Source of the DNA: an uncultured Gammaproteobacteria bacterium
GTDB taxonomy: Bacteria > Patescibacteriota > Microgenomatia > UBA8517
Direction of reading: 5' to 3'
DNA: 64,000 bases
Assembly: GCA_964429215.1 (NCBI GenBank)
Contig: CAYSAY010000001.1
Span: forward strand, 118,127 to 182,126
In this document: positions 1,800 to 57,070 of the stretch, one piece after another
How the letters are laid out: each line of letters starts with the position of its first letter
How positions within the stretch are numbered: position 1 is the stretch's first letter
Made by a program: the position numbers and the translations under genes
The notes under the pieces: generated by a model
Seen by the model: only the letters and a program-made list of their open reading frames with translations
What the model was told of the DNA's origin: nothing
The model's database searches: none

Positions 1800-2098
1800 G
1801 ACAAACCCCTTAGGTAAAGAGGTTAATTAATGTCTTGACTGATCTATTTAATTTCATTGTCCAAGTAGTTTAGGAAAATAGGTGCTACTTGTCAACCCTT
1901 AATTATAATGATATTATAATTTCCAATAGCATTGACGGTATTAACATACCTGAGCTGAAAGAAGAAATCTTTAAAAAGAAATTAGAACTTTCCGGAGTTG
2001 CCCGTTAAAGCAAATAAATGAAGTTATAAAACTGGGTGGCACCGCGAGATACCTCGCCCCTGTTTCGCAATATTTGCGGAATGGAGGCGAGGTTTTTG
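1800..2098 (+). promoter_or_regulatory. T-box riboswitch leader upstream of aspS (5' boundary approximate)
   Basis: Canonical T-box sequence AAACTGGGTGGCACCGCGAG at 2028-2048 (consensus AATTAGGGTGGNACCGCG). It is immediately followed by a terminator hairpin ACCTCGCC...GGCGAGGT (2051-2093) plus T5, directly 5' of the aspS ATG at 2114. The T-box bulge UGGC is complementary to 3'-GCCA of a G73 tRNA, and tRNA-Asp has G73. A GAC triplet followed by a purine is at 1934-1937 next to a GGTAT/ATACC hairpin. Confidence 0.55.
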
Positions 2099-2113
2099 GT
2101 GTAGAATAAATAT

Positions 2114-3904
2114 ATGAAAAGAACATTGGTTAAAGAAACAATAGAAAAAATTGATGAAACAATCAAGCTACAAGGCTGGGTTAGTACTATTCGTGACCAT
2201 GGAAAAATTACTTTTATTGATCTTAGAGACAGAACCGGAATTATACAATGTGTAGGAAGTAATTTAGAAAAAGTTTCTTTGGAAAGTGTTATTGAGATAG
2301 AAGGTAAAGTTGTCGGAAGACCTGAAAAATTAATAAATAGAGAAATTGAAACTGGCAAGGTCGAATTGCAAATTGAAAAAATGAATATAATTTCTTCTGC
2401 AGAAGAGTTACCTTTTGACATGAGCAAGGATGATTTAAATGTTGATTTGCCTGTTTTACTAGACAATAGAGCTTTAACATTAAGACATTCAAAAATTAAG
2501 GCAATATTTAAAGTTCAAGAAGTAGTAATCGATTCATTTAGAAAAGCTCTTCAGTCAAGAGATTTTACTGAATTTCAAGCTCCAAGCATTATTTCTTCCG
2601 CACCTGAAGGTGGTGCAGAAATATTTGAAGTAAAGTATTTTGGGCATAAGACTTATTTGGCTCAGAGCCCACAACTTTATAAATCTTTGCTTGTAAGTAT
2701 TTTTGAACGCGTCTTTTCTGTAAATAAAGTATTTCGAGCTGAACCATCAGTTACTACTCGTCATTTAACAGAGGTTGTAAGTTTAGATGCAGAGTTTGGA
2801 TTTATCGAAGATTATATGGAAGTCAAAGAAATGGCTGAATATACAATAAAATTTATTCTTGACGAAGTTTCTAAAAAGTGTGCAAAAGAATTAGAAATGT
2901 GGGGAGCTACAATTCCGTCTGTCTCTAAAAGTATACCAATTATTAAATTGAGAGATGCTCAAAAAATTATATTTGAAAGAACCGGAAGAGATTGTAGAGA
3001 AGAAAAGGACTTTGCTCCGGAAGATGAAAGAGAAATTTGTAGATGGTCAAAAGAAGTCCACGGTTCTGACCTTGTTTTTGTAAGTCACTATCCTACAAAG
3101 TATAGACCATTTTATACTTATCCTGATCCAGAAGATCCAGAATTTAACATGGGATTTGATTTAATTGGAAGAGGTACAGAGTGGATGACGGGCGGAAGAA
3201 GAATTCATGATTACAAAACACTTTTAGAACATGTTAAAGAATGGAACATCACTCCAGAAAATATTGAACTTTATTTGCAAGCATTTAAATATGGTACGCC
3301 TCCTCTTGGAGGATTTGCATTTGGTGCTGAAAGAATCACTATGCATATTTTAGGACTCAAAAATGTTCGCGAGGCTTCACTTTTCCCAAGAGATATGGAA
3401 AGAGTTGACATCAGATTATCTAAAACAGATAAAAAAGTAGAAGGGAATGATGTATATGGAAATATTTTGGAGTTGCTTGATGAAAATGAAATTGAATATC
3501 AAAAATATGAACATGAGCCAGTGTTTACAAGTGAGGAAGCTGCAAAGATAAGAGAAACAAGTATTCACCAAGGAGCTAAAGCTTTGGTTTTGCAGGCTGA
3601 CAAAGAATTTGTAATGTTAGTTTTGCCTGCTGATTTAAAAGCAGATTTGGATATATTTAAAAAGGCTAAATCTTTTAAGAAACTTGTAATGGCATCAAAA
3701 GAAAGTGTTAAAGCTAAAACTGGGCTAGAAGTTGGTTGCATTCCACCATTTGGATCATTGTTAGGATTAAAAACATTTGTAGATTCTAGATTGTCTGAAA
3801 ATGATGAGATTGCCTTTAACGCTGGGAGACATGATAAATCAGTTAAAATGAACTATAAAGATTATATAAAGGCAGAAAACCCTGAAGTTATTAACTTCAA
3901 CTAA
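2114..3904 (+). CDS. aspS: Aspartyl-tRNA synthetase (archaeal/short type, no GAD insertion) fused in-frame to a C-terminal YbaK/ProX-type aminoacyl-tRNA deacylase domain
   Basis: N-terminal OB fold. Class II motifs FRAE...R, GGFAFGAERITMHILG and the LFPRD tail, which ends the AspRS core near aa 435. Residues about 450-596 (NILELLDENEIEYQKYEHEP...KALVL...GCIPPFG) align with E. coli YbaK ([21 protein letters not shown]...KTLLV...GGISPLG). No in-frame stop or convincing internal start lies between the two parts. Confidence 0.8.
   Translation: MKRTLVKETIEKIDETIKLQGWVSTIRDHGKITFIDLRDRTGIIQCVGSNLEKVSLESVIEIEGKVVGRPEKLINREIETGKVELQIEKMNIISSAEELPFDMSKDDLNVDLPVLLDNRALTLRHSKIKAIFKVQEVVIDSFRKALQSRDFTEFQAPSIISSAPEGGAEIFEVKYFGHKTYLAQSPQLYKSLLVSIFERVFSVNKVFRAEPSVTTRHLTEVVSLDAEFGFIEDYMEVKEMAEYTIKFILDEVSKKCAKELEMWGATIPSVSKSIPIIKLRDAQKIIFERTGRDCREEKDFAPEDEREICRWSKEVHGSDLVFVSHYPTKYRPFYTYPDPEDPEFNMGFDLIGRGTEWMTGGRRIHDYKTLLEHVKEWNITPENIELYLQAFKYGTPPLGGFAFGAERITMHILGLKNVREASLFPRDMERVDIRLSKTDKKVEGNDVYGNILELLDENEIEYQKYEHEPVFTSEEAAKIRETSIHQGAKALVLQADKEFVMLVLPADLKADLDIFKKAKSFKKLVMASKESVKAKTGLEVGCIPPFGSLLGLKTFVDSRLSENDEIAFNAGRHDKSVKMNYKDYIKAENPEVINFN
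3461..3901 (+). other. YbaK/ProX-like trans-editing deacylase domain within the aspS ORF
   Basis: Alignment to YbaK over its whole length, including the YEHxP, KxLVL and G(C/G)I(P/S)P(F/L)G motifs. Confidence 0.7.
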
Positions 3905-3917
3905 TAGTTTACAGAAA

Positions 3918-4826
3918 ATGAAAATTAATCTTCTATATTTATCACTCTTATCTTTTGTGTTAATTTCAACAACTGCAATATCATTAAATAATGGATTTGA
4001 TGAAGTTGTGACATTTGTCTATCCTGAAAAAGTTGCTAAAGCTTACTCACCACTACCGATTTTAAAAGATGGAGCAAGATTTCCTATACTTTCGTCACAA
4101 TCTGTAATGGCTGTTGATTTAGTTTCTGGTGTGACTTTGTACGAGAAAGATCCAAATAAGGCGCTTTTGCCTGCTTCTACTACAAAAATTGTTACAGCAC
4201 TTGTAGCACTTGATACATACGAGCTTGACTCTGTTTTAAAAGTCGGAAGAGTAAATGTGGAAGGTCAAAAGATGGGGCTTGTTATGGGGGAGGAGATGAA
4301 ATTTATAGATCTTTTAAATGGACTTTTAATTTACTCGGCCAACGATGCAGCCGAGGTCTTGGCACAAAATCATCCAGGTGGAAGAGCTTTGTTTATAGGT
4401 TTAATGAATAAGAAAATAAAGGATTTGGGATTAACAAATACACATTTTACTAATCCTGTTGGACTTGATGATGGTGCGCAGTATTCTACTACTCGTGATT
4501 TGGTAGTGGTTTCAAAATTTGCAATGAAGAATCCTATTTTTTCTCAAATTGTTGGGACAAAGGATAAAACAGTAACGAGTGTTGATGGCCGAATTGTGCA
4601 TAAATTGACCAATATTAATAAATTATTAGGTGTTGTTCCGGGAGTAATGGGAGTTAAGACAGGATGGACCGAAAATGCTAGAGAGAATCTTGTAACTTAT
4701 ATAGAACGTGAAGATAAAAAGGTGATGATAGTTGTACTAGGAAGTTCAGATCGATTTGGGGAAACTAAAGAATTGATTGAATGGATATTTGATAGTTATT
4801 CTTGGCAAGAAGTAAAACCTGATTGA
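3918..4826 (+). CDS. D-alanyl-D-alanine carboxypeptidase (peptidase S11, PBP5/6-like) with N-terminal signal/anchor
   Basis: SxxK (ASTTK), SxN (YSAND) and KTG (VKTGWT) motifs. Hydrophobic N-terminus. Confidence 0.85.
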   Translation: MKINLLYLSLLSFVLISTTAISLNNGFDEVVTFVYPEKVAKAYSPLPILKDGARFPILSSQSVMAVDLVSGVTLYEKDPNKALLPASTTKIVTALVALDTYELDSVLKVGRVNVEGQKMGLVMGEEMKFIDLLNGLLIYSANDAAEVLAQNHPGGRALFIGLMNKKIKDLGLTNTHFTNPVGLDDGAQYSTTRDLVVVSKFAMKNPIFSQIVGTKDKTVTSVDGRIVHKLTNINKLLGVVPGVMGVKTGWTENARENLVTYIEREDKKVMIVVLGSSDRFGETKELIEWIFDSYSWQEVKPD

Positions 4827-5942: not shown

Positions 5943-7235
5943 ATGAGAACTAGATTTGCACCAAGCCCAACAGGATTCTTGCATATTGGAGGATTACGCA
6001 CAGCATTGTATGCATATGCGATGGCTAAACACGAGGGAGGAGAGTTTATACTTCGTATTGAAGATACTGATCAAAAAAGAGAAGTTGAAGGATCAACCGA
6101 TGCACTCCAAGTTACTTTGAAAAAATTTGGGATTGTATGGGATGAATTTTATATTCAATCTGAAAGGCATAAAAGTGGAATATATAAAAAAGCTGCAGAA
6201 AAACTTGTAGCTGAAGGTCACGCATTTTATTGTCAATGCAAACCTAAAAATGCGAAGGAAGAAGGTTTTTCTATTGAACTTCGTGATCCATGTAGAGATT
6301 TGAAATTAACTTCTGGAGCAATTAAGTTGAGAGTCCCTGATGGCGAGATGGTTAAATACACAGATTTTGTTCATAAAAAAGAAATATCTTGGAAAACAGA
6401 TACTGTATATGATGCAACACTTTTAAAATCGGACGGTTTTCCTACCTATCATTTAGCAGCAATGACAGATGATATTGATATGAAAATTACGCATATAATA
6501 AGGGGTCACGATTGGATGCCTTCAACTCCAATTCATCTTTTGGTATTTAAATATCTTGGTGGACCAACTCCTGAGATTGGTCATCCTACTGATATTTTGT
6601 CTGCTGAAACAGGAAAAAAATTATCAAAAAGAAGAGACTCTGTTTTTTGTGAACAATTTTTAGATGAAGGATATTTACCTGAAGCACTTTTAAATTTCAT
6701 TTTTCTTTTAGGTTGGGCTCCAAAAGATAACAGAGAACTTTATACATTGGAAGAAATGGTTAAGTTTTTTGATTCAAATGGATTTCAAGATGCAAACCCT
6801 AGATTTTTTAGAGAAAAACTAGATTGGTTTAATGGTCAATATATTCGTAAACTATCAGTCGACAATTTGTTGGAAAAATTAGGGATTGATAATAATCAAA
6901 AAAATAAATCAATAGTTGCCCTAATTCAAGATCGATTAGAAAAACTATCAGATTTTAAAGTACTTACTAAATTTTTCTATGAACAACCGGAAGTAGACGC
7001 TAGCGCGTGTGGAGAGAACTACAAAGAGCATCTAGTAAAGGCTATAGAGGGCATTAAAGATGATAAAGATTTGATGGAAGTTGTCAAAGAAAATAACTTT
7101 AAGACTGGCGACTTCTTTATGAGTTTGAGAGTCGCAATTACAGGTATGAAATTCACACCACCAATCAATGAATCAATTGTAATTTTGGGTAAAGAAGAAA
7201 CGCTTTCAAGGCTTCGCCTTGTAGTTAATAGTTAA
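5943..7235 (+). CDS. gltX: Glutamyl-tRNA synthetase
   Basis: HIGH motif (PSPTGFLHIGG) and KMSKS (KLSKR). Class I Glu/Gln-RS catalytic core, 430 aa. Confidence 0.85.
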   Translation: MRTRFAPSPTGFLHIGGLRTALYAYAMAKHEGGEFILRIEDTDQKREVEGSTDALQVTLKKFGIVWDEFYIQSERHKSGIYKKAAEKLVAEGHAFYCQCKPKNAKEEGFSIELRDPCRDLKLTSGAIKLRVPDGEMVKYTDFVHKKEISWKTDTVYDATLLKSDGFPTYHLAAMTDDIDMKITHIIRGHDWMPSTPIHLLVFKYLGGPTPEIGHPTDILSAETGKKLSKRRDSVFCEQFLDEGYLPEALLNFIFLLGWAPKDNRELYTLEEMVKFFDSNGFQDANPRFFREKLDWFNGQYIRKLSVDNLLEKLGIDNNQKNKSIVALIQDRLEKLSDFKVLTKFFYEQPEVDASACGENYKEHLVKAIEGIKDDKDLMEVVKENNFKTGDFFMSLRVAITGMKFTPPINESIVILGKEETLSRLRLVVNS

Positions 7236-8203: not shown

Positions 8204-8530
8204 ATGAGCATTCTATTTTTCGACAAATTAATTGTTCTAGATAAATTGGATAATCATATCAAAAAAAGATATGAGTCAAATGAAGAGAGACAAGAAATTT
8301 GGCAAATTGTAGAGGAAATTTTGCATCATAAGGTAATGGGTTGTGTCTTAAATCATTTACCTAAAATTCACCATAATGAATTTTTAGAAAAATTTCATAA
8401 ACATCCATATGATGAAAGTATAATTGAATTTTTGAGTGAGAAATCAAAAAAAGATATGAAAAAAATAATTAAAGAGGAGATTAAGCTACTAACTAAGGAT
8501 CTCCTCCTTCTTGACTCTCACAAAGTGTAG
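8204..8530 (+). CDS. hypothetical protein (108 aa)
   Basis: ORF only. Charged, helical-looking. No recognised family. Confidence 0.3.
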   Translation: MSILFFDKLIVLDKLDNHIKKRYESNEERQEIWQIVEEILHHKVMGCVLNHLPKIHHNEFLEKFHKHPYDESIIEFLSEKSKKDMKKIIKEEIKLLTKDLLLLDSHKV

Positions 8531-10018
8531 CCAATCTTCAAGTATTTCAAGGAATGTTTTTAAGGGAGCTTCGATAATAAAGTCAAAAATGAAACTTAAA
8601 ATATTAATTTTACTTATTTGATTTGATAATAATTGGCCAATTTTTATGATTGGTAGAAAAATGTAGTCCATCAATGTTTCAAAAAATGATTCGTTATAAC
8701 TATCATGCAATTGATATTCTTTTGAAATTTCTCGTACTCGGAATGCAAAAAAGGAAACAACAGAAAGGAAAAACAAAAATATAATTTGGCTTATAAAACT
8801 GAATCCTAAAATTGTTAAAAACCAAAGTATCCCAAGTATCATTAAGATTGATGTAAACAAGAAAATGTAAAAAAATGTCTTGTCACTTTTCCCTAATATT
8901 TTATTTTCAACAATGTTTTCTGGGATATTCTTGTCACTATCTAGATATAACCAGTTATAAACCTGTTCAACCATGTCCTGAGTATTTCTTTTGCTAGGTA
9001 GTTTAACGGAAGAATTAAACAAGATCATTAATGATGGCGGGAATAAAATATTTATGGCAAGTACGACATAATTTAAATGGCTAAAAAGTATTTCAAATGG
9101 TATTTCAATGATTATTGCTAAAATCATTTTTGTAAGAAAAATATAGATTATGCTTCTCTTTGAGGCACGTATTACTTTATCCTTTGTTTGAGTATATTTT
9201 TCCTCAAGCAACTTTGTAGCTGCTAATTCAAGTTTGGTGTCGTCAGAAATTAGTTTTATAAATTCTGGATTTTCTTTTATTAAATCACGAATTAAGTTAA
9301 AAGGAGGTATTAATTGGTTGACCTTTCTTTTTATTAAATCTTTTAATGGGTGGTTTAGATGATTTTTTACAATTTCATATGTTTTTAGAAATTTATTAGG
9401 ATCGCTCCAATTAGGTAGTAAAACTTTTAAAAGTTTGTATGAGATAATATCGTCACTATTTTTTGCAAATGTTTTTTCTACCGCGATGTATATTTGAATA
9501 CTTTTAATTGTTTTGTCAGGTTCGTTGAAATCAATTTTATTAAAAATTGAAGAGGAAACATAATTAATTATAACTTGGTTTATTGGATTAAAATTTAAAT
9601 TGTCTTCAATTTCGCATGCACAAATAGTTATTATCTCTCTTGTATTTTTTGAATCGGATGTTTTGACCGCTTCTCTATATTTACTAATTATTTTTGAAAG
9701 TTGTTCAATTTTTTCATTTTCGACAACATTGTTTACTAAATATTTTGCCCATGATAGTTCTTTAATTAATAATTTAGCAATTTTTGAGTTGTCTTGATTT
9801 AAAAAAATTCTTCGTTTTAAAATTCTTTCAACAGCTGCAATCCTAACTAGGTTCTCATCTCTAAATTCGACTGCATTTCTAGCTTTTTCATAAATAAATG
9901 CTAAGTTAGAAGCAGTACTTGTTAAATTCTGAGATTTATTTGTTTTGTCTCCACTAAATTTTATAGCCAATTCAATATCTCTGACTAATTCCTTTGTTAC
10001 TTGGTTTATATTTGCCAT
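8489..10018 (-). CDS. hypothetical membrane protein (about 330 aa soluble N-terminal domain plus C-terminal multi-TM region)
   Basis: 509-aa ORF. The C-terminal third contains several hydrophobic helices. No recognised family. Confidence 0.5.
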   Translation of the reverse strand: MANINQVTKELVRDIELAIKFSGDKTNKSQNLTSTASNLAFIYEKARNAVEFRDENLVRIAAVERILKRRIFLNQDNSKIAKLLIKELSWAKYLVNNVVENEKIEQLSKIISKYREAVKTSDSKNTREIITICACEIEDNLNFNPINQVIINYVSSSIFNKIDFNEPDKTIKSIQIYIAVEKTFAKNSDDIISYKLLKVLLPNWSDPNKFLKTYEIVKNHLNHPLKDLIKRKVNQLIPPFNLIRDLIKENPEFIKLISDDTKLELAATKLLEEKYTQTKDKVIRASKRSIIYIFLTKMILAIIIEIPFEILFSHLNYVVLAINILFPPSLMILFNSSVKLPSKRNTQDMVEQVYNWLYLDSDKNIPENIVENKILGKSDKTFFYIFLFTSILMILGILWFLTILGFSFISQIIFLFFLSVVSFFAFRVREISKEYQLHDSYNESFFETLMDYIFLPIIKIGQLLSNQISKINILSFIFDFIIEAPLKTFLEILEDWLHFVRVKKEEILS

Positions 10019-23587: not shown

Positions 23588-23697
23588 GTAGTTTGTATTA
23601 TATAGCATCAGCTACAGAATCGCATTGCTCTGTAAAAGTAGATATCGTAAGTGAGCTTCAGAATATTTTTCTTGTTTCTGCTAAAATATGGCTAATT

Positions 23698-25173
23698 ATG
23701 GCAATTAGAAGAATACTTGATTACACAGAAGAACCTTTGCATAAATCAGCAGAGAAAGTTGTGGGGTTTGGAAAGGAAACTAAGACTATTGTATCTGACT
23801 TGATAGACACTTTGTATTCATCCACAGGCGTTGGTCTTGCTGCTCCTCAAATTGGTATAAATAAACAAATTTTTATATATGATCCAAAAAGAAAGCTTGA
23901 CGAAAAAATTTATAACTATAAAGTACTTATCAATCCAAAAGTAACAATATTAGGCAATGAAAAAAGACAATCAAAAGAAGGTTGCAAAAGTACGCCTGAT
24001 TTGTTTGTTAATTTAAGAAGATACTCAAAAATAGTTGTAGATGGATTTGATGAAAACGGAAACCCAGTTAAATTTGATTCAAAAGGTATTGAAGCACAAG
24101 TAATTCAACACGAAGTAGATCATCTGACAGGTAAATTAATATTTGAACATGAGTCAATAAATGACAAAGATAAAAGTTTATACAACGATTATGTTTCAGA
24201 CACAAAAAACATTCTCGACTCACTTAAATTTGCAAATGAAATTAAAGATGGTCAGATTTTGATAACTATTTCAAACAATAATACTATTCATTTATTCAAA
24301 GACGGAGATCAAATTCAAATGTATTTTTCAGACAAGGGTAAATTTAGTGGGATTATGTCTAGAATTGACATCAAGCACCCATTAAGACTAATTGGTATTT
24401 ATACGCAAGCAATGATGTTAAGTTTAGTTTTTTCAGATATTCCAGAGAAAGTATATTTAATTGGTTTTGGTGGAGGTCGAATTCCAATGATCTTTCATCA
24501 TTATTTTCATAAAACTGTTATTGAGAGTACTGAAATAGACAACGAGGTAATTGATATATCCAAAAAATATTTTGGCATATCTTTAGATGAAAGAATGATT
24601 GTAGAAAATACTGACGGTAGAAGCTATCTACAAAATCAAAATAGTGATAAAAAATACGATATCATAATTGTTGATACTTTCTCTGGATCAGGTGTACATC
24701 CTTTTCCGTTTTCTACTATTGAATTTTATGATTTGTGTAAAAATCATCTTTCTCAAAATGGAGTTGTTACAACTAACTTAGTTGAAACGGATCCGCTATT
24801 CCAACAAAAAGTAAAGACATTTATTGAATCTTTCAGGTATGTTTATGAGTTTTTGTATGAAGGAACTCATGTATATTTTGGAAGTGAGTCCGTAAATATA
24901 AAAATTGAAGATTTTGTAAAGAAAGCCAAACAAATTGATAAATTTTATAATTTTAGGTTTCCTTTAGATTGGCTAGCCAAAAAAGTTAATATTGTCAAAA
25001 AATCAGATAGTGCAAGCAATGATATCGTAAATGAAGAATTGCTAAGTGACAAATCAAATCCTTCTGAAAAAATAAATATATTTTCTGGAGTTTCCAGAAA
25101 TGATCTTTGTCCATGTGGTTCAGGCAAAAAATTTAAACGCTGCCATCTTTTAAAAATAATTGATATAGTCTGA
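23698..25173 (+). CDS. def: Peptide deformylase fused to a spermidine-synthase-like class I methyltransferase-fold domain and a C-terminal SEC-C zinc-binding motif
   Basis: PDF motifs GVGLAAPQIG, EGC and QHEVDHLTG at aa about 1-160. A GFGGGRIP...E.D...DGR...YDIIIVD Rossmann/SpeE-like region follows. The final residues are DLCPCGSGKKFKRCH (SEC-C). The start is chosen at the Met (MAIRRILDY), because the track start at 23593 is 6 nt from the tRNA. Confidence 0.75.
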   Translation: MAIRRILDYTEEPLHKSAEKVVGFGKETKTIVSDLIDTLYSSTGVGLAAPQIGINKQIFIYDPKRKLDEKIYNYKVLINPKVTILGNEKRQSKEGCKSTPDLFVNLRRYSKIVVDGFDENGNPVKFDSKGIEAQVIQHEVDHLTGKLIFEHESINDKDKSLYNDYVSDTKNILDSLKFANEIKDGQILITISNNNTIHLFKDGDQIQMYFSDKGKFSGIMSRIDIKHPLRLIGIYTQAMMLSLVFSDIPEKVYLIGFGGGRIPMIFHHYFHKTVIESTEIDNEVIDISKKYFGISLDERMIVENTDGRSYLQNQNSDKKYDIIIVDTFSGSGVHPFPFSTIEFYDLCKNHLSQNGVVTTNLVETDPLFQQKVKTFIESFRYVYEFLYEGTHVYFGSESVNIKIEDFVKKAKQIDKFYNFRFPLDWLAKKVNIVKKSDSASNDIVNEELLSDKSNPSEKINIFSGVSRNDLCPCGSGKKFKRCHLLKIIDIV

Positions 25174-25903: not shown

Positions 25904-27487
25904 ATGCATTGGGCGGACAAAGTAGCAAACGAAATTGTAAAATCAGGTAAATATTTGCCTTATTGGGTTGATGATATGAAAACCCCTTCAGGGTATGCTC
26001 ATATTGGTTCTATGTTGGGACCTGTTGTACATAGTGCAATTTATAGAGCACTTAAAGATTTAAAGAAAGACGCCGTGCTAACTTATGTGTTTAATGACTT
26101 TGATCCAGCAGATGAGTTTCCATCAATTTTAAAAGAAGCACTTGATGGTCATCAAGGTAAAGCTTTGAAAATGTGTCCTTCTCCATCACCAGAATTTGAA
26201 AATCTAGCAGATTTTTTGGCGGATGATCTTAAAAAATCAATTGAGTATTTAGGATTTGAAGCAAAATATGTTTCAAGTTGGGATTTGTATAAAGCAGGCA
26301 AATTTGACGAAGTTATTAAAATTGCACTTGATAACTCTGAGAAGATTCAAGATATTTACCAAAAAGTTTCTGGAAGTCAGAAAAAGATAAGTGGTTGGCT
26401 TCCGTTTCAAACAATATGTGAGAAATGCGGAAAATTGGGAACAACAAAAGTTTATGAATGGGATGGTGAAAAAGTTAGTTACAGATGCGAACAAAATCTT
26501 GTAACCTGGGCCACAGGGTGTGGCTATGAAGGGAAGGTGACTCCATTTGGCGGTACAGGTAAGTTACCATGGAAAATTGATTGGGCTGCTCATTGGGCCG
26601 TAATTGGGGTAACAATTGAAGGTGCGGGGAAAGACCATGCCAGTAAAGGTGGAAGTTATGATATTGCAATGGCAATTTGTAAAGAAGTGTTTAAATATCC
26701 AATGCCTTATAAACTTCCAATTGAATTTTTATTAATTGGAGGCAAGAAAATGTCATCTTCAAAAGGTATCGGGTTAAAAGCTCATGATCTTGTAAAGATA
26801 CTTCCTGCAGAAGTGGCAAGGTTTTTATTTATAGATAAAGACATAAATAAACAAAGTAATTTTGATCCATATGGAACTATGGCAATTCCTGATTTGTTTG
26901 ATGAATATGATAAATGTTGGGAAAGTTATACTAAAAACGGAGATGAGGATCTGTCAAGGAATTTTGTTTTATCTCAAATTAATTATGGCTTTTTACCAGA
27001 AAAGGAGAAAGGTTTTTTTGCTCCAAGATTTAAAGATATCGCAAATTATTTATCACAAGGACTAACTGATTCAGAAGTATTAAATAAAATTTCGGAAATT
27101 AAAGAAGGAAAACTAGATGATAGTGAGATTTCAGTTTTTGAAGAAAGATTAAAATATGCAAAAATTTGGCTATCTGATTTTGCACCAAGTGAATATAGGT
27201 TTGATTTAACTGAAGAAATACCAGCTGAAGTGTCTAAATTTACTGATTTACAAAAGCAATATATAAGTAAAATAAAAGAAATATATAATGATGATGAAAC
27301 AGCTGAATCATTGCAAATTTCATTATATGAACTTACAAAAAGTTTAAATATTCCTACAAAAGAGGGATTTAGTGCAATATACACATCATTAATTGGAAAA
27401 ACTCATGGCCCAAGAGCAGGGATGTTGCTCATTAATATTGGAAAAGAAAAAGTCTTGGAAAGATTTGAAGAAGTTTCAAAACTTTAA
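25904..27487 (+). CDS. Lysyl-tRNA synthetase, class I (archaeal type)
   Basis: Class I architecture with an HIGH-region variant (SGYAHIGS) and KMSKS (KMSSSKG). The length of 527 aa and the N-terminal MHWADxxA are typical of LysRS-I. Confidence 0.8.
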   Translation: MHWADKVANEIVKSGKYLPYWVDDMKTPSGYAHIGSMLGPVVHSAIYRALKDLKKDAVLTYVFNDFDPADEFPSILKEALDGHQGKALKMCPSPSPEFENLADFLADDLKKSIEYLGFEAKYVSSWDLYKAGKFDEVIKIALDNSEKIQDIYQKVSGSQKKISGWLPFQTICEKCGKLGTTKVYEWDGEKVSYRCEQNLVTWATGCGYEGKVTPFGGTGKLPWKIDWAAHWAVIGVTIEGAGKDHASKGGSYDIAMAICKEVFKYPMPYKLPIEFLLIGGKKMSSSKGIGLKAHDLVKILPAEVARFLFIDKDINKQSNFDPYGTMAIPDLFDEYDKCWESYTKNGDEDLSRNFVLSQINYGFLPEKEKGFFAPRFKDIANYLSQGLTDSEVLNKISEIKEGKLDDSEISVFEERLKYAKIWLSDFAPSEYRFDLTEEIPAEVSKFTDLQKQYISKIKEIYNDDETAESLQISLYELTKSLNIPTKEGFSAIYTSLIGKTHGPRAGMLLINIGKEKVLERFEEVSKL

Positions 27488-29117: not shown

Positions 29118-30353
29118 ATGTTAGATATCAAATTCATCAGAGATAATGCAGAGTTTGTAAAAACTGCTACCAAAAACAAAGGTTTTGACGAAACTGTTGT
29201 CGATAAACTTCTTGTAGTGGATGCAGAAAGAAGAAAATTAATAGGAGATACAGAAGAAATACGTGCGAAAAAGAACAAATTGGGTCGTGATGATGTTGAA
29301 GAAGGAAAAAAATTAAAAGTATCACTCAAAGAAGTTGAAGAGAAATTAAAGACTTCAGAATTTGAATTTAATGAATTGATGTTGAAAGTTCCAAATATAA
29401 CTGCTTCGGATGTAAAGGTTGGGACTGAAGAAGATAATGAAGTAATTAAAAAAGTTGGAACTCCTAAAGAATTTTCATTCAATGTTAGAGATCATGTTGA
29501 TATTGGATTATTAACTGACACAATTGATCTGGAAAGAGGTGCTAAAGTTGCTCAATCAGGTTTTTATTATTTTAAAAATGATCTAGTTCTTTTAGAGCTT
29601 GCATTAGAGTTATATTCATTTGAAAAATTAATAACAAAAGGATTTGTACCTGTTATTACCCCAAATGTTGCCAAAGAAAGAAATATTGTAGGTTGTGGAT
29701 TTCAAGCTAGAAGTGATAAAGAGAGACAAATTTATCATTTGGATGGAGAAGACCTTGATTTAATTGCGACAGCTGAAATTACTTTAATGGGGCTTCATGC
29801 TGATGAAGTATTGGATTTTAAAAAGTTGCCATTAAAGTACGTAGGTTTATCTAGTTGTTATAGAAAAGAGATTGGAAGTTATGGAAAAGATGTGCGTGGA
29901 ATTTTAAGAGTCCATGAATTTAAAAAGGTTGAAATGGTTATTTTATGTTCTCCAACTGAATCTGAACGAATTCATGAGGAAATGCTTGCAATAGAAGAGG
30001 AAATATATCAGGAATTAGATATTCCATATCAAGTTATTAAAATGGCAACTGGAGATTTGGGTAATGCAGCAAGTAAAAAATATGATCTTGAAGCATGGAT
30101 GCCATCACAAAATAAATATCGAGAAATTACTTCAACTAGTAATACTACTGATTTTCAAGCACGAAGATTAAATATAAAAACTAAAATAGAAAATGATAAC
30201 GTTTACGTTCATAGTTTGAACGGAACAATAATGACAACATCAAGAACAGTAATAGCAATTTTGGAAAATTATCAAAATGAAGATGGTTCAGTTAATATTC
30301 CTCTAGTTCTTCAAAAATGGATGGGTAAAGAAATTATTAATGTTTCTAAATGA
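29118..30353 (+). CDS. serS: Seryl-tRNA synthetase
   Basis: MLDIKFIRDNAEFV N-terminal coiled-coil arm. Class II motifs with C-terminal GSxxxxxR. Confidence 0.9.
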   Translation: MLDIKFIRDNAEFVKTATKNKGFDETVVDKLLVVDAERRKLIGDTEEIRAKKNKLGRDDVEEGKKLKVSLKEVEEKLKTSEFEFNELMLKVPNITASDVKVGTEEDNEVIKKVGTPKEFSFNVRDHVDIGLLTDTIDLERGAKVAQSGFYYFKNDLVLLELALELYSFEKLITKGFVPVITPNVAKERNIVGCGFQARSDKERQIYHLDGEDLDLIATAEITLMGLHADEVLDFKKLPLKYVGLSSCYRKEIGSYGKDVRGILRVHEFKKVEMVILCSPTESERIHEEMLAIEEEIYQELDIPYQVIKMATGDLGNAASKKYDLEAWMPSQNKYREITSTSNTTDFQARRLNIKTKIENDNVYVHSLNGTIMTTSRTVIAILENYQNEDGSVNIPLVLQKWMGKEIINVSK

Positions 30354-52256: not shown

Positions 52257-52372
52257 GTGAAAGTGTGAGAATTATAACAGACTTATAGTAAAAAATCTAA
52301 CTGAATAGATGTTTTGGTTCAATTACTATATACAAACGAATCTGCATTTATATGTGGATTCTTTTTTTAGAC

Positions 52373-53070
52373 ATGAAAAAGCTAGATATTATAATCCCAG
52401 TACTGAATGAGGCTGATAATCTTCAGCCGCTAGTTACGCAAATAGATAAAGTTTTAGGTGCAAAAAAAATCAGTTATAGGTTAATTATTGTTGATGATCA
52501 TTCCAGTGATGGAACTTCAGAATTGATAAAAAAGTTAAGTATTAAATATCCAATCATTTTTAAATTAAAGGAAGGAAGCAGGGGCAAGGCATATTCGATA
52601 TTGGAAGGAGTAAGTTTCGCAGAATCTGAATTTGTGGCGATGATTGATGGAGATTTACAATATTCACCATCTTATATTCCAGAGTTATATGAAAAGGCTG
52701 TATCAGAAAACCTTGGAGTGGTTGTTGCTAATCGGGTTAAACATAAAGAAGGAATGTTACGAAAGATTGGGTCAAAAGTAGTTAAATTTATAGCGTGTAG
52801 CTTAATGGGCCAAAGTGTTGATTTTCAATCAGGGCTTAAAATATTTAAGCGGGAAGTTGTTAATCATTTAGATAAATCAAATATTAAGCCTTGGGCTTTT
52901 GATATACCTCTTATTCACACTGCTTTGGAGTTAGGAGAAAAGATTGGAACAGTTGATATAACCTTTGAACCGCGACTACATGGTAAATCAAAGTTTAACT
53001 TTATGACAAGTTTAGTAGGTGTAACTGAAGTAATGGTCGGGCTTTTAAAATTAAAACTTAAACCTACTAG
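52373..53070 (+). other. Domain 1: GT2, polyprenol-phosphate hexosyltransferase-like (DPM1/GtrB/ArnC type)
   Basis: IIIPVLNEADNL...IIVDDHSSDGT...DGD. Confidence 0.7.
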
Positions 53071-56000
53071 AGTATTTCATTTAAAGCCAACAGAAAATTT
53101 AACAATGAAGGGGGCGGGAATTGTGTATAAAAGAAATAAATTTTTAACTCATACAACGCTTAATCATAACAATTCTGCAATAGTAACTTTTACCCGTGGG
53201 CAGATTTCAGTTATTTTTATGATTTTATCTGCTTTTGGGGTTGGGCTTATATTATCAACCCAAACTACATTAATAGTTTTTGTGGCAATTCTATCTTTTG
53301 TTTATTTTGCAGATGTGTTTTTTAATCTTTATTTAGTTTTAAAAAGTCTTCATTTTCCACCTGAATTAATGTTTGAAGATAATGATTTGGTAAATATCAA
53401 AGAAAGTTCGTTGCCTTTATATACAATTTTGTGTCCACTTTATCACGAATCCGGAATTTTACCTCAATTTGTAGATTCAATTAATAAAATGGATTATCCA
53501 AAAAATAAGCTTGAAGTATTACTTCTCTTGGAAGAAGATGATACAAAGACAATCGAAAGTGCTAGAAGTTTAAAATTACAAAAGCATTTTAAAATAATTG
53601 TTGTTCCTCATTCACTACCAAAAACTAAACCCAAAGCTTGTAACTATGGATTGGCACATGCCAAAGGTGAATTTGTAGTTATATATGATGCAGAGGATAT
53701 TCCAGATCCATTTCAGCTTAAAAAAGCAGTTTTAGGATTTAATAAGTTAGGTAAAAGTTATTCTTGTCTCCAAGCAAAACTTAACTATCATAATCCAAAT
53801 CAGAATTTACTCACAAGACTTTTTACATCTGAATATAGTTTATGGTTTGACATTATGCTGCCTGCGTTACAAACAATTAATACAACAATACCATTAGGTG
53901 GAACAAGCAATCATTTTAGAAGAGAAGACCTTAACAAATTTGAAGGATGGGATCCATTTAATGTTACTGAAGATGCTGATCTTGGAATTAGACTTTTTAA
54001 AGCTGGTGGAAAAACTGCAATTATAGATTCCGTAACTTTAGAAGAAGCAAATAGTAATTTAAAAAATTGGATAAGACAAAGGTCAAGGTGGATTAAGGGT
54101 TATATGCAAACATACTTTGTGCATATGAGAAACCCTTGGCAGTTTGCTAAGGATCATGGAAGACATTGGTTAGTTTTTCAACTTGTTTCAGGGCTTCGTA
54201 TTTCTTTTATGTTAATTAATCCAATTTTATGGGGGTTAACATTTTCTTATTTTTTACTATATAAATTTGTAGGACCACAAATTGAAAGTTTGTATCCATC
54301 TGCAGTTTTTTATATGGCTATAACGTCAGCTGTATTTGGAAACTTTTTGTATATCTACTACTACATGATAGGAACTGCAAAGCATGGACAATATCAATTA
54401 ATTAAATATGTATTTTTAATTCCTATTTATTGGGTATTTACTAGTATTGCAGCAACTGTTGCTTTTTGGCAGTTACTCGTAAAACCTCATTATTGGGAGA
54501 AAACAATTCATGGATTAACTAAAGAAGAGAAAAAGAAAATATTATTCAAGTTTGAGTTTGCAGGTCTTAAAGAGTTTGGATTTAGTAGTTTTAATAAGAT
54601 TAAAAGTTTTTCAAAAAGTTCGTTAGCTAGTGGTGCATTCTTAATATTTGCTTCAATGTTTGCAAATGTAATGAACTTTTTGTATAACGCCTATTTAGGG
54701 AGAAAGTTAGATTTAGATGATTTTGGATTAATAAGTTTAGTTGGAAGTTTTATCTTTTTGTCACAAGTACCACTTTCTGCACTTTCGAGAACTGTTACAC
54801 ACAGAAGTGCCTTTTTGTTTGGTAGGTATGGTACTGCAGTCACAAATTTTTGGAAAAATACTCGATCAAAGTCGGTAAAAATATCATTTTTGTTTACAGC
54901 TGTTTGGATTTTACTTACACCTTATTTAATGAATCTATTTAAAACAGATCAATTTTTGCCATTTTTGATATTTGCACCAACATGGATAATTGGATTTGCT
55001 GAAGCTGTTGATGGAGGGTTTATAAAAGGTAATCTAAACTTTTATGTTTCAGGAGTCACGGTGATTACTGAAGCTGTTACTAAGCTTCTGCTGGCAATTT
55101 TAATAGTAACATTAGGTTTTGATCATTGGGTTTATTTGTCAATTCCACTTTCTATGTTTTCGGCCTTCCTGATAAGTTGGCATTTTGCTAGAAAAATTAA
55201 ACAGAATGTTGAAGTAGAAATTGAAGTTGAAAATTATTTTCCAAGAGCATTTTATTCAACATCAATTTTGACTAAAATATCATCAATTGCGTTTCTAAGT
55301 TTGGATTTAATTCTTGCTAAAATTTATTTAAGTCCAACGGACGCGGGTCTTTATTCATTACTTTCTTTAGCTGGGAAAATGGTTTATATGTTTGGAACAC
55401 AGTTTTCTCAATTCATATTGCCAATAGTAAGTAAGAATGAAGGAGAGGGCAGAGATTCTTTGAAGTCATTTTACAAACTTTTTTTGATGACCACTGTAAT
55501 TAGTTTGTTAGGTTTTTTGGTTATCGGAATTTTTGGATATGTAACAGTTCCATTATTATTTGGAAATAGGGTGCTACCAATTGTTACATATCTACCTTAT
55601 TTTGCTTTTGCAATGGCAATACAAGTTTTGTCACAGGCAATTGTAAACTATTATCAATCAAAAAATAATCAAATATTTCCTGTTGTTAATTTTGTAGTCT
55701 CATTCTTTACTATTTTTAGTGTCATATTTATACATAATAGTATCACTTCAATTGTAAACATTATGTTTATATCTTCCCTGGTCAGTTTTACAGTAATGCT
55801 TGTTATGCATATATTTGTAAAGCAAATCAATATATTAAAAAGCAATTTATTAGATTTGTCAGGGGTATTTAAAAAGTTGCCTTTAACTAATATAAATGTG
55901 GATTCTAATTTAAATATATTAATATTTAACTGGAGAGATACAAAACATGTATGGGCTGGAGGAGCTGAAGTTTATGTACATGAAATTGCGAAGAGGTGGG

Positions 56001-57070
56001 TAAAAGCTGGTCACTTAGTTACTGTATTTTGTGGAAATGACAGAAAATCTCCAAGGAATGAAGTAATCGATGGTGTGCAAATGGTTAGGAGAGGTGGATT
56101 TTATACTGTGTATTTTTGGGCGTTTCTTTATTATATATTAAGATTTCGAGGTAAGTATGATGTTGTCATTGATAATGAAAATGGTATACCATTTTTTGCC
56201 CCCCTTTATGTAAAGGAACCAGTAATTGGACTTGTTCATCATGTTCATCAAGAAGTGATATTAAAGAAATTAAAATTGCCGAAGTATCTTATTCCAGTAG
56301 GTTTGATTGCAGTGTTTATTGAACGATATTTAATGCCAATAATATATAAAAATACTCAAATGATTACTGTGTCAGAATCATCAAAAATTGATATGGAGAA
56401 AATTGGTCTGGGTAAAATTAAGCCAATATTGATTGTAAATCCAGGAGTTGATCTGTCTTTGGTTAAACGATTTAAGAAAACAACCGCACCAAGCCTTCTT
56501 TTTGTAGGAAGAATAAAGGCATATAAATCAATAGATACTTTGATAAAAGTAGTATTTGTAATCAAAAATGATATTCCAAATATAAAATTAAATATTGCGG
56601 GATATGGAGAAGAACAAAAAAACTTAGAAGTTTTAGTTGCTAAGTTGGGTATTCAGGATAATGTAAATTTTTTGGGTAAAATTTCAGATTTAGAGAAATA
56701 TGAATTAATGTCTAAATCTTGGGTATTTGTTTATCCGTCTACATTTGAAGGTTGGGGCATTTCTGCAATAGAAGCGAATGCCTCTGGTACTCCCGTAGTT
56801 GCTTCAGATGTGGCAGGACTGCGTGATTCAGTAAATGATGGTGTCTCGGGTATGTTAGTTGAAGCAAAGAATGTAGATCAATTTACATCAAAAATATCGG
56901 AAATAATTAATAATAAAAAATTAAGAAACAGTCTCTCTAGAGGTGGCATAAAATGGGCAAGTAATTTTGATTGGTCTAATAGTTCCCACTTATTTATTGC
57001 CTATATCTATAATTATTTGAACGCAAGTAAAAATTATAAATTATCAAATTCAGATTACGATTTAACATGA
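52373..57070 (+). CDS. Giant multidomain glycan-synthesis protein: GT2 (DPM1/GtrB-like), processive GT2 (QxxRW) with TM bundle, Wzx/MOP-flippase-like 12-TM domain, and GT4
   Basis: Single uninterrupted 1565-aa ORF (1572 aa from the track start). Domain-defining motifs are listed in the four domain features that follow. Confidence 0.8.
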   Translation: MKKLDIIIPVLNEADNLQPLVTQIDKVLGAKKISYRLIIVDDHSSDGTSELIKKLSIKYPIIFKLKEGSRGKAYSILEGVSFAESEFVAMIDGDLQYSPSYIPELYEKAVSENLGVVVANRVKHKEGMLRKIGSKVVKFIACSLMGQSVDFQSGLKIFKREVVNHLDKSNIKPWAFDIPLIHTALELGEKIGTVDITFEPRLHGKSKFNFMTSLVGVTEVMVGLLKLKLKPTRVFHLKPTENLTMKGAGIVYKRNKFLTHTTLNHNNSAIVTFTRGQISVIFMILSAFGVGLILSTQTTLIVFVAILSFVYFADVFFNLYLVLKSLHFPPELMFEDNDLVNIKESSLPLYTILCPLYHESGILPQFVDSINKMDYPKNKLEVLLLLEEDDTKTIESARSLKLQKHFKIIVVPHSLPKTKPKACNYGLAHAKGEFVVIYDAEDIPDPFQLKKAVLGFNKLGKSYSCLQAKLNYHNPNQNLLTRLFTSEYSLWFDIMLPALQTINTTIPLGGTSNHFRREDLNKFEGWDPFNVTEDADLGIRLFKAGGKTAIIDSVTLEEANSNLKNWIRQRSRWIKGYMQTYFVHMRNPWQFAKDHGRHWLVFQLVSGLRISFMLINPILWGLTFSYFLLYKFVGPQIESLYPSAVFYMAITSAVFGNFLYIYYYMIGTAKHGQYQLIKYVFLIPIYWVFTSIAATVAFWQLLVKPHYWEKTIHGLTKEEKKKILFKFEFAGLKEFGFSSFNKIKSFSKSSLASGAFLIFASMFANVMNFLYNAYLGRKLDLDDFGLISLVGSFIFLSQVPLSALSRTVTHRSAFLFGRYGTAVTNFWKNTRSKSVKISFLFTAVWILLTPYLMNLFKTDQFLPFLIFAPTWIIGFAEAVDGGFIKGNLNFYVSGVTVITEAVTKLLLAILIVTLGFDHWVYLSIPLSMFSAFLISWHFARKIKQNVEVEIEVENYFPRAFYSTSILTKISSIAFLSLDLILAKIYLSPTDAGLYSLLSLAGKMVYMFGTQFSQFILPIVSKNEGEGRDSLKSFYKLFLMTTVISLLGFLVIGIFGYVTVPLLFGNRVLPIVTYLPYFAFAMAIQVLSQAIVNYYQSKNNQIFPVVNFVVSFFTIFSVIFIHNSITSIVNIMFISSLVSFTVMLVMHIFVKQINILKSNLLDLSGVFKKLPLTNINVDSNLNILIFNWRDTKHVWAGGAEVYVHEIAKRWVKAGHLVTVFCGNDRKSPRNEVIDGVQMVRRGGFYTVYFWAFLYYILRFRGKYDVVIDNENGIPFFAPLYVKEPVIGLVHHVHQEVILKKLKLPKYLIPVGLIAVFIERYLMPIIYKNTQMITVSESSKIDMEKIGLGKIKPILIVNPGVDLSLVKRFKKTTAPSLLFVGRIKAYKSIDTLIKVVFVIKNDIPNIKLNIAGYGEEQKNLEVLVAKLGIQDNVNFLGKISDLEKYELMSKSWVFVYPSTFEGWGISAIEANASGTPVVASDVAGLRDSVNDGVSGMLVEAKNVDQFTSKISEIINNKKLRNSLSRGGIKWASNFDWSNSSHLFIAYIYNYLNASKNYKLSNSDYDLT
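53400..54500 (+). other. Domain 2: processive GT2 (cellulose/hyaluronan/NodC/PgaC-like) with C-terminal TM helices
   Basis: YDAED, TED and QRSRW, flanked by hydrophobic helices on both sides. Confidence 0.7.
54600..55830 (+). other. Domain 3: MOP-superfamily (Wzx/polysaccharide-transporter-like) multi-TM domain
   Basis: SLASGAFLIFASMFANVMNFLYNAYLGRKLDLDDFGLISLVGSFIFL resembles the Wzx/PST N-terminal signature. About 12 hydrophobic helices. Confidence 0.55.
55905..57067 (+). other. Domain 4: GT4 (group-1 glycosyltransferase)
   Basis: LLFVGR, and EGWGISAIEANASGTPVVASDVAGLRDSV (the E-x7-E GT4 motif). Confidence 0.75.

Follow-up and report, generated by a model that had tools for sequence, protein, structure and literature searches.

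The locus described here raises the question of why an aspartyl-tRNA synthetase (AspRS) should continue, beyond the end of its catalytic core, into a domain related to aminoacyl-tRNA deacylases. Editing domains are known from IleRS, ValRS, LeuRS, ThrRS, AlaRS, PheRS and ProRS, and AspRS is regarded as accurate enough without editing; to our knowledge, no AspRS has an editing domain or a proofreading activity. The gene lies in a 64,000-nucleotide stretch of DNA (hereafter, the window) and its identity was proposed in an initial annotation, which read it as an AspRS running without a stop into a YbaK/ProX-type deacylase domain in a CPR/Patescibacteria bacterium.

The physical existence of this fusion is confirmed. 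A single ORF, opening with the ATG at 2114 and closing with a stop that ends at 3904, runs through both parts with zero internal stops (Table 1), in DNA with a GC content of 31.7%, at which long ORFs are rare by chance. Pfam matches place an AspRS and a domain of the PF04073 superfamily within it, the motifs quoted in the initial annotation are all present (ASLFPRD, whose last residue is 427, YEHEP, GAKALVL and GCIPPFG), and the host is indeed a CPR/Patescibacteria bacterium. The frame at 3400–3470, where a missed stop or frameshift had been thought conceivable, is genuine and no artefact of assembly: the 596-aa product is identical on four separately assembled contigs (ENA, 195 kb; Logan, 13.7 kb; NCBI, 264 kb), and 53 other full-length fusions with 55–74% identity align through the junction between AspRS and editing domain. 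Synthetic core and editing domain thus share one polypeptide, as in cis-editing class II synthetases. The linker holds no in-frame ATG from which a free domain could be made from the fused gene, and adjacent ATGs are out of frame.

Table 1. Features of the aspS locus, with positions numbered from the first nucleotide of the window
Feature	Position	Strand	Remarks
Complete aspS::editing-domain ORF	2114..3904	+	596 aa + stop; identical product on 4 independent contigs
N-terminal OB-fold anticodon-binding domain, residues 18-93	2165..2392	+	Pfam PF01336 tRNA_anti-codon, E = 4.9e-15
Class II AspRS catalytic core, residues 114-427	2453..3394	+	Pfam PF00152 tRNA-synt_2, E = 1.4e-69; ends ...SLFPRD
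Conserved AspRS C-terminal tail MERVDIRLS, residues 428-436	3395..3421	+	Found too in relatives without the domain
Variable linker KTDKKVEGND, residues 437-446	3422..3451	+	Length and sequence differ among fusions
Predicted INS-superfamily (PF04073) aminoacyl-tRNA deacylase domain, probably YeaK/ProXp-ST1 branch, residues 447-596	3452..3901	+	Sequence profiles and fold
Lys489 codon (in GAKAL), superfamily catalytic lysine	3578..3580	+	Aligns with conserved Lys of YbaK
G541-C-I-P-P545, GXXXP loop holding the aminoacyl ester	3734..3748	+	G541, P544, P545 and G547 invariant
Peptidase_S11 (D-Ala-D-Ala carboxypeptidase)	3918..4826	+	First downstream neighbour, 13 nt past aspS stop

The AspRS part is of the archaeal-genre type, in which an OB-fold anticodon-binding domain precedes a class II core. 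Residues 1–431 match the NCBIfam family NF003483 (aspartate--tRNA(Asn) ligase) with 467.4 bits, above its cut-off of 353, and the score against TIGR00458 lies slightly below the cut-off (347 vs 368). The core motifs QSPQ (at residue 184), FRAE (207) and GGFAFGAER (399) do not vary among the 53 fusions, and the core is 88–95% identical to that of AspRS from unfused Woesebacteria. The OB domain keeps 70–80% identity even to relatives with a bacterial-type catalytic core. In an AlphaFold2 model of the full-length protein (pTM 0.68), the linker of about 10–15 aa is disordered, with pLDDT <50 at residues 432–445, and the editing domain is placed without confident docking.

Modeled alone, the 150-aa editing domain adopts the YbaK fold (pLDDT 96.6, pTM 0.90), and all 37 of the significant Foldseek matches in the PDB are INS-superfamily members (TM 0.65–0.86). 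Pfam tRNA_edit (PF04073) covers residues 467–586 with E = 1.3e-27, or 9.3e-29 when the C-terminus alone is the query, and its score of 96.8–100.5 bits against a gathering cut-off of 25.5 makes the domain a member of the superfamily. The GXXXP loop and the catalytic Lys are the motifs that define this superfamily (PMC11286415), and both, singled out in the initial annotation as the residues to inspect, are intact; Lys489 and G541-C-I-P-P545 are unchanged in 174 sequences (54 fused, 120 free-standing), fused and free-standing forms carry the same invariant residues, and the domain in the window keeps 18/18 invariant family positions. The window protein has Glu481 at a position where most family members have Gly. 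From its conserved residues, the deacylase domain is predicted to be catalytically intact and active. That the C-terminus is non-functional, either as an assembly or frameshift artefact or as a decaying or non-catalytic appendage, we regard as very improbable: although the nearest relatives are without the domain and Glu481 departs from the family's usual Gly, this reading has to contend with the identical ORF in four assemblies, dozens of full-length fusions, the complete set of invariant positions, and the confident model of the domain.

What the domain might hydrolyze depends on its place within the superfamily. The closest characterized relative is Escherichia coli YeaK (BLASTP 89 bits, 36% identity over 154 aa; hhalign probability 99.8%, E = 4e-29), which shares with it a full-length alignment, the fold, the catalytic Lys, the GXXXP loop and the motifs (I/V)RGT.L.QGAKALV, G.IPPF, EIAFNAG..DKSV and P..VNF. 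The two differ in that YeaK is a free-standing protein of 167 aa acting in trans on many tRNAs, and in having Leu at position 573, where the window protein has His. The closest solved structure, Legionella pneumophila lpg1207 (PDB 3op6; Foldseek TM 0.83–0.85), belongs to a free-standing, uncharacterized protein that by alignment departs from the present family at some of its invariant residues, with, for instance, Ala for Arg480 and LAK for GAK. In single-sequence phmmer and family-profile searches, YeaK scores 75 and 112 bits and 3op6 77 and 114 bits, as against 34 and 53 for YbaK, 20 and 58 for ProXp-x, and 23 and 45 for ProXp-ala. The family profile gives 41–45 bits on the ProXp-ala structures 5vxb, 1vki and 8huz and 22 on the human one, and stays at or below 58 bits on all of YbaK, ProXp-x, ProXp-ala and INS. 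Among the branches compared (YeaK, YbaK, ProXp-x, ProXp-ala and INS), the domain is closer to YeaK than to any other characterized one, and on this evidence it is assigned, within the INS superfamily, to the YeaK/ProXp-ST1 branch. ProXp-x (58 bits vs 112 for YeaK) and ProXp-ala (41–45 vs 112–114 for YeaK and 3op6) were rejected on these scores, and YbaK sensu stricto on the cut-offs of its own families (63–67 bits vs 153 for TIGR00011, 29–32 vs 243 for NF007951).

The initial annotation is therefore upheld as to the superfamily and fails as to the branch: the domain is of the PF04073 type, is neither YbaK proper nor ProXp-ala, and has YeaK/ProXp-ST1 as its nearest relative. ProXp-ST1 hydrolyzes Ser- and Thr-tRNAs (PMC11295145), so the chemistry to be expected of the domain is Ser/Thr-like and not the removal of Cys or Ala from tRNAPro. 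The latter reading, in which a YbaK/ProX-type deacylase makes up for a missing INS domain in ProRS and has AspRS merely as its carrier, can point to the shared superfamily, to the end-to-end alignment with YbaK, and to the label "Ala-tRNA(Pro) deacylase" that JGI attaches to many free-standing relatives. We nonetheless consider it quite improbable in view of the failed YbaK equivalog cut-offs, of profile scores of 41–53 bits on YbaK and ProXp-ala structures vs 112–114 on YeaK and 3op6, and of the lack of any ProRS fusion or ProRS neighborhood in the species-representative loci, the top 150 family representatives and the free-standing members. Within the 64-kb window, the large ORFs scanned include no ProRS, AsnRS or GatCAB. 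The presence of a DTD gene 9.4 kb upstream of aspS also makes a role on D-aminoacyl-tRNA less likely.

It is useful to consider these features in light of other systems that join a synthetase to a partner of this kind. In every synthetase–editing domain fusion known to us, the domain acts on the products of its own synthetase. ProRS-INS and the protist ProXp-ala-ProRS likewise combine a class II synthetase with an INS-superfamily deacylase in one polypeptide, and there the domain edits the synthetase's own product, Ala-tRNAPro (PMC11295145, PMC11286415). The present fusion departs from them in its partner (AspRS, class IIb, rather than ProRS), in the location of the domain (C-terminal rather than between motifs 2 and 3 or N-terminal), and in the branch of the superfamily (YeaK-like rather than a different one). 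AspRS-GatC (NF009460) resembles it as an AspRS with a C-terminal partner that handles the aminoacyl end of the product, although that partner is an amidotransferase subunit and not a hydrolase, and the core is of the bacterial type only. Trypanosoma brucei MCP3 offers a looser parallel, an INS-superfamily deacylase held physically with synthetases including AspRS in a multi-synthetase complex, an association that limits promiscuous deacylation (PMC11286415); unlike the fusion, MCP3 is bound non-covalently, is a member of the eukaryotic ProXp-7 branch, and has Ala-tRNAPro as its substrate.

The reading that we prefer, to which we give a probability of roughly 0.5, is that the gene product is a genuine two-activity enzyme in which AspRS carries a tethered post-transfer proofreading module. 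The dimeric AspRS body would bind tRNAAsp, and probably tRNAAsn as well, through its anticodon-binding domain, and the tethered domain would use Lys489 and the G541xxxP545 loop to hydrolyze the ester of a non-cognate aminoacyl group of small size, for which a Ser- or Thr-like group is the most plausible candidate. Deacylation would take place on tRNA still bound to the synthetase or freshly released from it, with the outcome that post-transfer proofreading is reserved for the products of AspRS. We know of no AspRS that misactivates Ser or Thr.

The distribution of the fusion bears on this reading from both sides. The fusion is no one-off and is widespread in Patescibacteria: 54 of the best 120 homologs have it, as do 32 of the 42 loci that an alignment-based scan gave in species-representative genomes (a single-sequence genome scan gave nothing, its back-translated patterns being too specific), and public MAGs commonly carry it annotated merely as AspRS. 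Comparison of fused with split aspS and ybaK-like genes in related CPR genomes, a comparison suggested at the outset, reveals fused, split-adjacent and domain-less variants, all in one syntenic slot, RecJ - aspS(::edit) - S11 - orf362(-) - GluRS, which every fusion found occupies. Where the genes are split, they are adjacent and overlap, as with the ATGA overlap at locus L007. AspRS is the partner in every synthetase fusion found, both in the 32 of 42 loci and wherever a synthetase occurs in the architectures of the top 150 family representatives, and no other synthetase is fused to the domain in either set.

The catalytic core to which the domain is joined is far more variable than the parts on either side of it. 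Partner cores are of the archaeal type (NF003483) or the bacterial type (NF001750), the latter with or without GAD; both occupy the same syntenic slot and are interleaved in a neighbor-joining tree of the domain, which was built without support values. Between the protein at locus L010 and that of the window, for example, the OB domain (70–80%) and the editing domain (70–83%) are well conserved, and identity in the catalytic core is only about 20–30%. This pattern suggests that catalytic cores were swapped in situ between anticodon-binding and editing domains that are orthologous throughout. The association of AspRS with the editing domain appears to be old, with lineages having exchanged cores of the archaeal, divergent archaeal and bacterial types, the last of these with or without GAD. 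Many Patescibacteria lineages have kept the domain; it is split off in some, and is absent from many Woesebacteria, in some of which it seems to have been shed repeatedly. In one relative (P0008, at locus L008) the AspRS is truncated within the linker (...KKVEGKDQSN*), and the 412-nt gap beyond it contains no decayed remnant of the editing domain, the linker scar KKVEGKD being all that is left. Many close relatives are without the domain despite a catalytic core that is 74–95% identical, which means that it is dispensable in them.

These same observations lend weight to a different view of the domain, namely that it is a general trans-editing factor for Ser/Thr-tRNA like free-standing ProXp-ST1, with broad tRNA specificity, and that its fusion to AspRS is a by-product of gene adjacency. 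It would then clear Ser or Thr mischarged by ThrRS, AlaRS, ValRS, IleRS and others, and the contribution of AspRS would go no further than co-expression, a scaffold for dimerization, or some curb on promiscuous deacylation. The closest characterized homolog, YeaK/ProXp-ST1, does have broad tRNA specificity, the invariant residues are common to fused and free-standing forms, and the domain was lost repeatedly while the AspRS core looks unaffected. Orthologs that occur as free-standing proteins in other phyla, with about 50% identity, have neither AspRS nor any other synthetase as neighbors, from which we infer that the ancestral role of the family did not depend on AspRS. In two family representatives the fusion partner is the downstream Peptidase_S11 instead of AspRS, so adjacency alone is able to create fusions in this slot. 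Furthermore, there are superfamily members in which appended parts or complexes dimerize the protein or curb promiscuity (PMC9425024, PMC11286415). Much of the pattern could be accounted for by one ancient fusion followed by inheritance and core swaps, the flanking domains serving as homology arms, with no need for the fusion to have been selected. Set against this are the facts that no synthetase other than AspRS was found as a partner, over two unrelated types of catalytic core, that the fusion either outlasted the core replacements or re-formed, and that a tether to an anticodon-specific binder of tRNAAsp/Asn should favor those tRNAs. We therefore judge a general editor to be somewhat unlikely, albeit a serious competitor to proofreading of AspRS products.

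A further proposal is that the domain controls Asp-tRNAAsn, hydrolyzing this product of a non-discriminating AspRS and thereby barring Asp from Asn codons, either where Asp-tRNAAsn is left unconverted by GatCAB or in lineages with AsnRS and without GatCAB. The core does score above the cut-off of the aspartate--tRNA(Asn) ligase family, AspRS-GatC is a precedent for an Asn-pathway partner at the AspRS C-terminus, and the side chain of Asp is similar in volume to that of Thr. We know of no INS-superfamily member that accepts an acidic side chain, however, and the fused and free-standing forms carry the same invariant residues; moreover, in cells with GatCAB this species is an obligatory intermediate, and its destruction would be a waste. 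Retention of Asp-tRNAAsn on non-discriminating AspRS has been likened to editing (PMC3367201), but on balance we hold hydrolysis of this species by the domain to be improbable.

According to a 2024 review, members of the INS superfamily are single-domain proteins except in the ProRS cases (PMC11295145), and we found no description of an AspRS–editing domain fusion in the searchable literature, in keeping with the initial claim that it is unreported. Returning to the preferred reading of AspRS-specific proofreading, we tentatively suggest, as a possibility that falls short of an even chance, that AspRS in a large bacterial radiation gained a dedicated proofreading domain, and that the OB and editing modules form a conserved chassis into which archaeal and bacterial cores were repeatedly slotted. 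If the proofreading reading is true, these AspRS enzymes make a physiologically relevant error, be it Ser/Thr-like mischarging or unwanted Asp-tRNAAsn, and the ProXp-ST1/YeaK branch would comprise a form embedded in a synthetase as well as free-standing factors. If the domain is instead a general editor, the finding is more modest and still illustrates the way in which translation quality control is packaged in minimal genomes. The locus is also a clear natural example of modular synthetase evolution, with tRNA-binding and editing modules co-inherited, xenologs taking the place of the core, and repeated loss of the editing module. The conserved and intact deacylase on AspRS in dozens of Patescibacteria lineages provides a clonable test of AspRS errors, and hence of whether such errors matter in minimal-genome cells with scavenged amino-acid pools.

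The AspRS encoded in the window reads on without a stop into a second, deacylase-like domain, as the initial annotation had proposed. Past the core, which ends in ...SLFPRD at residue 427, lie a tail (MERVDIRLS) that is also present in domain-less relatives, a variable linker (KTDKKVEGND) and then the editing domain. Residues 1–431 score 467 bits against NF003483, the NCBIfam equivalog for aspartate--tRNA(Asn) ligase (cut-off 353 bits). The frame at the junction, for which a check had been advised, is real: four independently assembled contigs (ENA, Logan and NCBI) yield exactly the same 596-aa product, and 53 further full-length fusions (55–74% identity) align across it. The GC content of the DNA is 31.7%. 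Two ORFs antisense to the start of aspS are absent from the gene calls of all relatives listed and are probably not genes.

Features of the fused gene, of its surroundings in the window and of the loci L008, L039 and L052
Feature	Location	Strand	Observation
AspRS–editing-domain ORF	window 2114–3904	+	596 codons, 0 internal stops
OB-fold anticodon-binding domain	residues 18–93	+	Pfam
Class II D/K/N synthetase core	residues 114–427 (window 2453–3394)	+	Pfam, E = 1.4e-69
PF04073 'aminoacyl-tRNA editing domain'	residues 467–586	+	Pfam, E = 1.3e-27
Antisense ORF	window 2005–2466	-	low-complexity translation
Antisense ORF	window 2289–2492	-	low-complexity translation
GluRS	window 5943–7235
Large ORF	window 8489–10018	-	no Pfam match
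Deformylase–methyltransferase ORF	window 23593–25173	+	526 aa; peptide deformylase 38–186, spermine/spermidine-synthase-like methyltransferase 280–411, C-terminal SEC-C motif
Lysyl-tRNA synthetase	window 25904–27487	+	class I type (PF01921)
SerRS	window 29118–30353
Large ORF	window 52352–57070	+	1572 aa
Large ORF	window 59068–60582	+	no Pfam match
Large ORF	window 60575–62191	+	no Pfam match
Sequence at the domain's position	L008 1539–1950		412 nt, unrelated; uncalled ORF of ~70 aa, rich in hydrophobic residues
Methyltransferase gene between aspS and free-standing editing-domain gene	L039 45–3462		cyclopropane-fatty-acid-synthase-like
D-aminoacyl-tRNA deacylase (DTD)	L052 595–1050		PF02580; past the window's left end

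The second domain had been described as YbaK/ProX-type, and the evidence places it in that superfamily but not with YbaK proper. Modelled alone (pLDDT 96.6, pTM 0.90), its 37 significant Foldseek matches against the PDB are all INS/YbaK-superfamily members, and both motifs that define the superfamily and serve its catalysis (PMC11286415) are present, the conserved Lys as Lys489, within GAKAL, and the GXXXP loop as G541-C-I-P-P545. Neither varies across 54 fused and 120 free-standing sequences, in which His467, Thr472-Ser473, Arg480, FNAG568-571, Ser576, Asp583 and Pro590 are equally invariant; that the domain is an artefact or a dead appendage is very improbable. The YbaK model TIGR00011 gives 63–67 bits against a cut-off of 153. 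When a family profile of the domain was scored against solved structures and the E. coli YeaK sequence, 3op6 (the uncharacterised Legionella lpg1207) and YeaK (ProXp-ST1) scored 114 and 112 bits, followed by ProXp-x (2cx5, 58 bits), YbaK (49–53), 1wdv (47), ProXp-ala (41–45) and the ProRS INS domain (28–38). YeaK has no solved structure and so could not be found by the PDB search; its sequence, taken from the E. coli K-12 genome, aligns with the domain end to end (hhalign probability 99.8%, E = 4e-29, 36% identity; BLASTP 89 bits; phmmer 75 bits, on the scale of the PDB searches). As judged from sequence, this alignment and these scores place the domain with the YeaK/ProXp-ST1 branch, in a comparison set without ProXp-ST2, FthB and ProXp-7/8/9. 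That branch hydrolyzes Ser- and Thr-tRNA with broad tRNA specificity (2024 review, PMC11295145). The Cys/Ala-tRNAPro activity first suggested for the domain is quite improbable.

The fusion belongs to a known kind, synthetases that carry an added editing domain. The nearest known systems are free-standing YeaK/ProXp-ST1, ProRS with its INS domain, the protist ProXp-ala–ProRS fusions, the protein of PDB 3op6, the AspRS–GatC fusion (NF009460) and the MCP3/multi-synthetase complex of T. brucei, in which the association is non-covalent. Searches of the full-text literature, a scope outside which most subscription journals fall, found no description of AspRS fused to an editing domain; it is probable that the fusion is unreported, as had been claimed. 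Its sequences are already public under the label of plain AspRS.

Of the 120 top-scoring database homologs of the full-length protein, 54 have all three domains; these 54 belong to MAGs of Woese-, Ames- and other Microgenomates/Patescibacteria, where they are annotated at source as plain (non-discriminating) AspRS. A pattern-based scan with one genome for each species, which bears on the earlier question of fused versus split forms in related CPR genomes, yielded 42 loci: 32 fused, two split but adjacent, one with a methyltransferase gene inserted (L039), and seven free-standing (Nano-/Woesearchaeota, Armatimonadota, Isosphaeraceae, Zipacnadia and others). Every Patescibacteria locus lies in the same slot, RecJ–aspS(::edit)–Peptidase_S11–orf362(-)–GluRS, in which the domain is fused, split off as an overlapping gene (by ATGA in L007 and 23 nt in L005) or absent (L001–L004, L008). 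The records of L010, L014–L017, L019, L021, L025, L031 and L036–L039 are titled 'uncultured Gammaproteobacteria', 'Pseudomonadales' or 'Methanosarcinales'; all have the Patescibacteria RecJ-aspS-S11-GluRS synteny, and the names given for the organisms are probably erroneous or mere placeholders.

Every basal lineage in the core tree is fused; fused and unfused proteins occur together in the crown clade, where the window protein is nested among unfused ones. Unfused proteins end at differing points shortly past MERVD.RLS, and P0008, the protein of L008, terminates (...KKVEGKDQSN*) partway through a linker that fused relatives have in identical form. The tree pattern, the varied ends and the stop within the linker point to the domain having been lost repeatedly and independently. 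L008, the nearest unfused relative, carries unrelated sequence at the domain's position.

Two kinds of synthetase core carry the domain. An archaeal-type core like that of the window is found at 14 of the 32 fused loci; at the other 18 the core is only ~30–36% identical to it, and nine of those tested score 565–839 bits against NF001750, the bacterial-type AspRS model (cut-off 443 bits). Bacterial-type fusions are full length with the GAD insertion (~747 aa; kept in L037, L047 and P0255) or lack it (~620 aa; L010, L015, L019, L021, L024, L032, L044 and the protein P0343, all above the cut-off). The GAD position is that of the ThrRS editing domain, according to a study of the H. pylori ND-AspRS (PMC3367201). 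Each type has its own C-terminus (archaeal ...FPRDMERVD.RLS; bacterial ...DAPSE..QL.EL.I..), then a short linker and the editing domain; both sit in the same slot, and they interleave in a neighbor-joining tree of the domain (drawn without support values). Between L010 (bacterial-type) and the window protein, identity is 70–80% in the OB domain (residues 1–90) and 70–83% in the editing domain, but ~20–30% in the catalytic core; a third group with a divergent archaeal-type core (P0034, P0053, P0070, L009) shows ~50% core and 72–80% domain identity. Conversely, a cluster of Woesebacteria AspRS without the domain shares 88–95% identity with the window core. In a comparison with the P0014 locus, identity in the flanking genes is only 59–73% (protein) and ~66% (DNA), against 82% DNA identity for aspS and 83–92% for its catalytic part. 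These contrasts indicate that the catalytic core has moved laterally, like an exchanged cassette, and that the anticodon-binding and editing modules have been inherited together. When window 2453–3394 was compared with L001, L008, L009 and L010, the core was 94–100% (protein) and 83–92% (DNA) identical to that of one organism, whose flanks are merely 59–73% identical; cores of equally related organisms are 50% or 25% identical.

The domain family comprises 3,294 cluster representatives at E <= 1e-3 (981 at E <= 1e-10), the best 150 of which are mostly free-standing (~155 aa). A Pfam scan of ten longer members among these 150 found AspRS of both types or AspRS fragments (six), three tandem editing domains (two), Peptidase_S11 fusions (two) and a WD40 protein (one), with no ProRS or other non-AspRS synthetase among the ten; in other phyla, the neighbors of free-standing members include no synthetase. 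P0241 (448 aa) and P0247 (491 aa) are the triple-domain proteins; P0311 (505 aa) and P0353 (486 aa) carry the domain N-terminal to the D-Ala-D-Ala carboxypeptidase (S11) that is the slot's downstream neighbor, and may be genuine or may reflect frameshifts in the gene calls. The association of the domain with AspRS is old, and AspRS is the only synthetase partner found for it. The main alternative, possible but less favored, is that the domain simply serves the cell as a general editor of Ser/Thr-tRNA and became fused because the two genes had long been adjacent; the Peptidase_S11 fusions, the existence of free forms with no tie to AspRS and the readiness with which the domain is lost would agree with it.

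Other genes in the window include an ORF of unusual three-part architecture (deformylase, methyltransferase and SEC-C) and three large ORFs (504–538 aa) without a Pfam match, of which the 509-aa one keeps its position in relatives. Since the lysyl-tRNA synthetase is of class I, AspRS may be the sole class IIb synthetase here, barring a possible AsnRS.

In the full-length model (pLDDT 87.8) the linker is disordered (pLDDT < 50, residues 432–445), and the pTM of 0.68 means that there is no confident docking of the domain. The domain would be an active aminoacyl-tRNA deacylase, acting through Lys489 and the GXXXP loop and presumably preferring small, hydroxylated aminoacyl groups, as does its nearest characterized relative. 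Hydrolysis of Asp-tRNAAsn is improbable. DTD, encoded ~9.4 kb upstream of aspS, gives the genome a second, unrelated tRNA-deacylase and makes a D-aminoacyl role for the domain less likely. The main clients may be the tRNAs handled by AspRS, because the domain is tied to an anticodon-binding module specific for tRNAAsp/Asn, and we put at roughly one half the probability that the domain provides post-transfer proofreading for AspRS.
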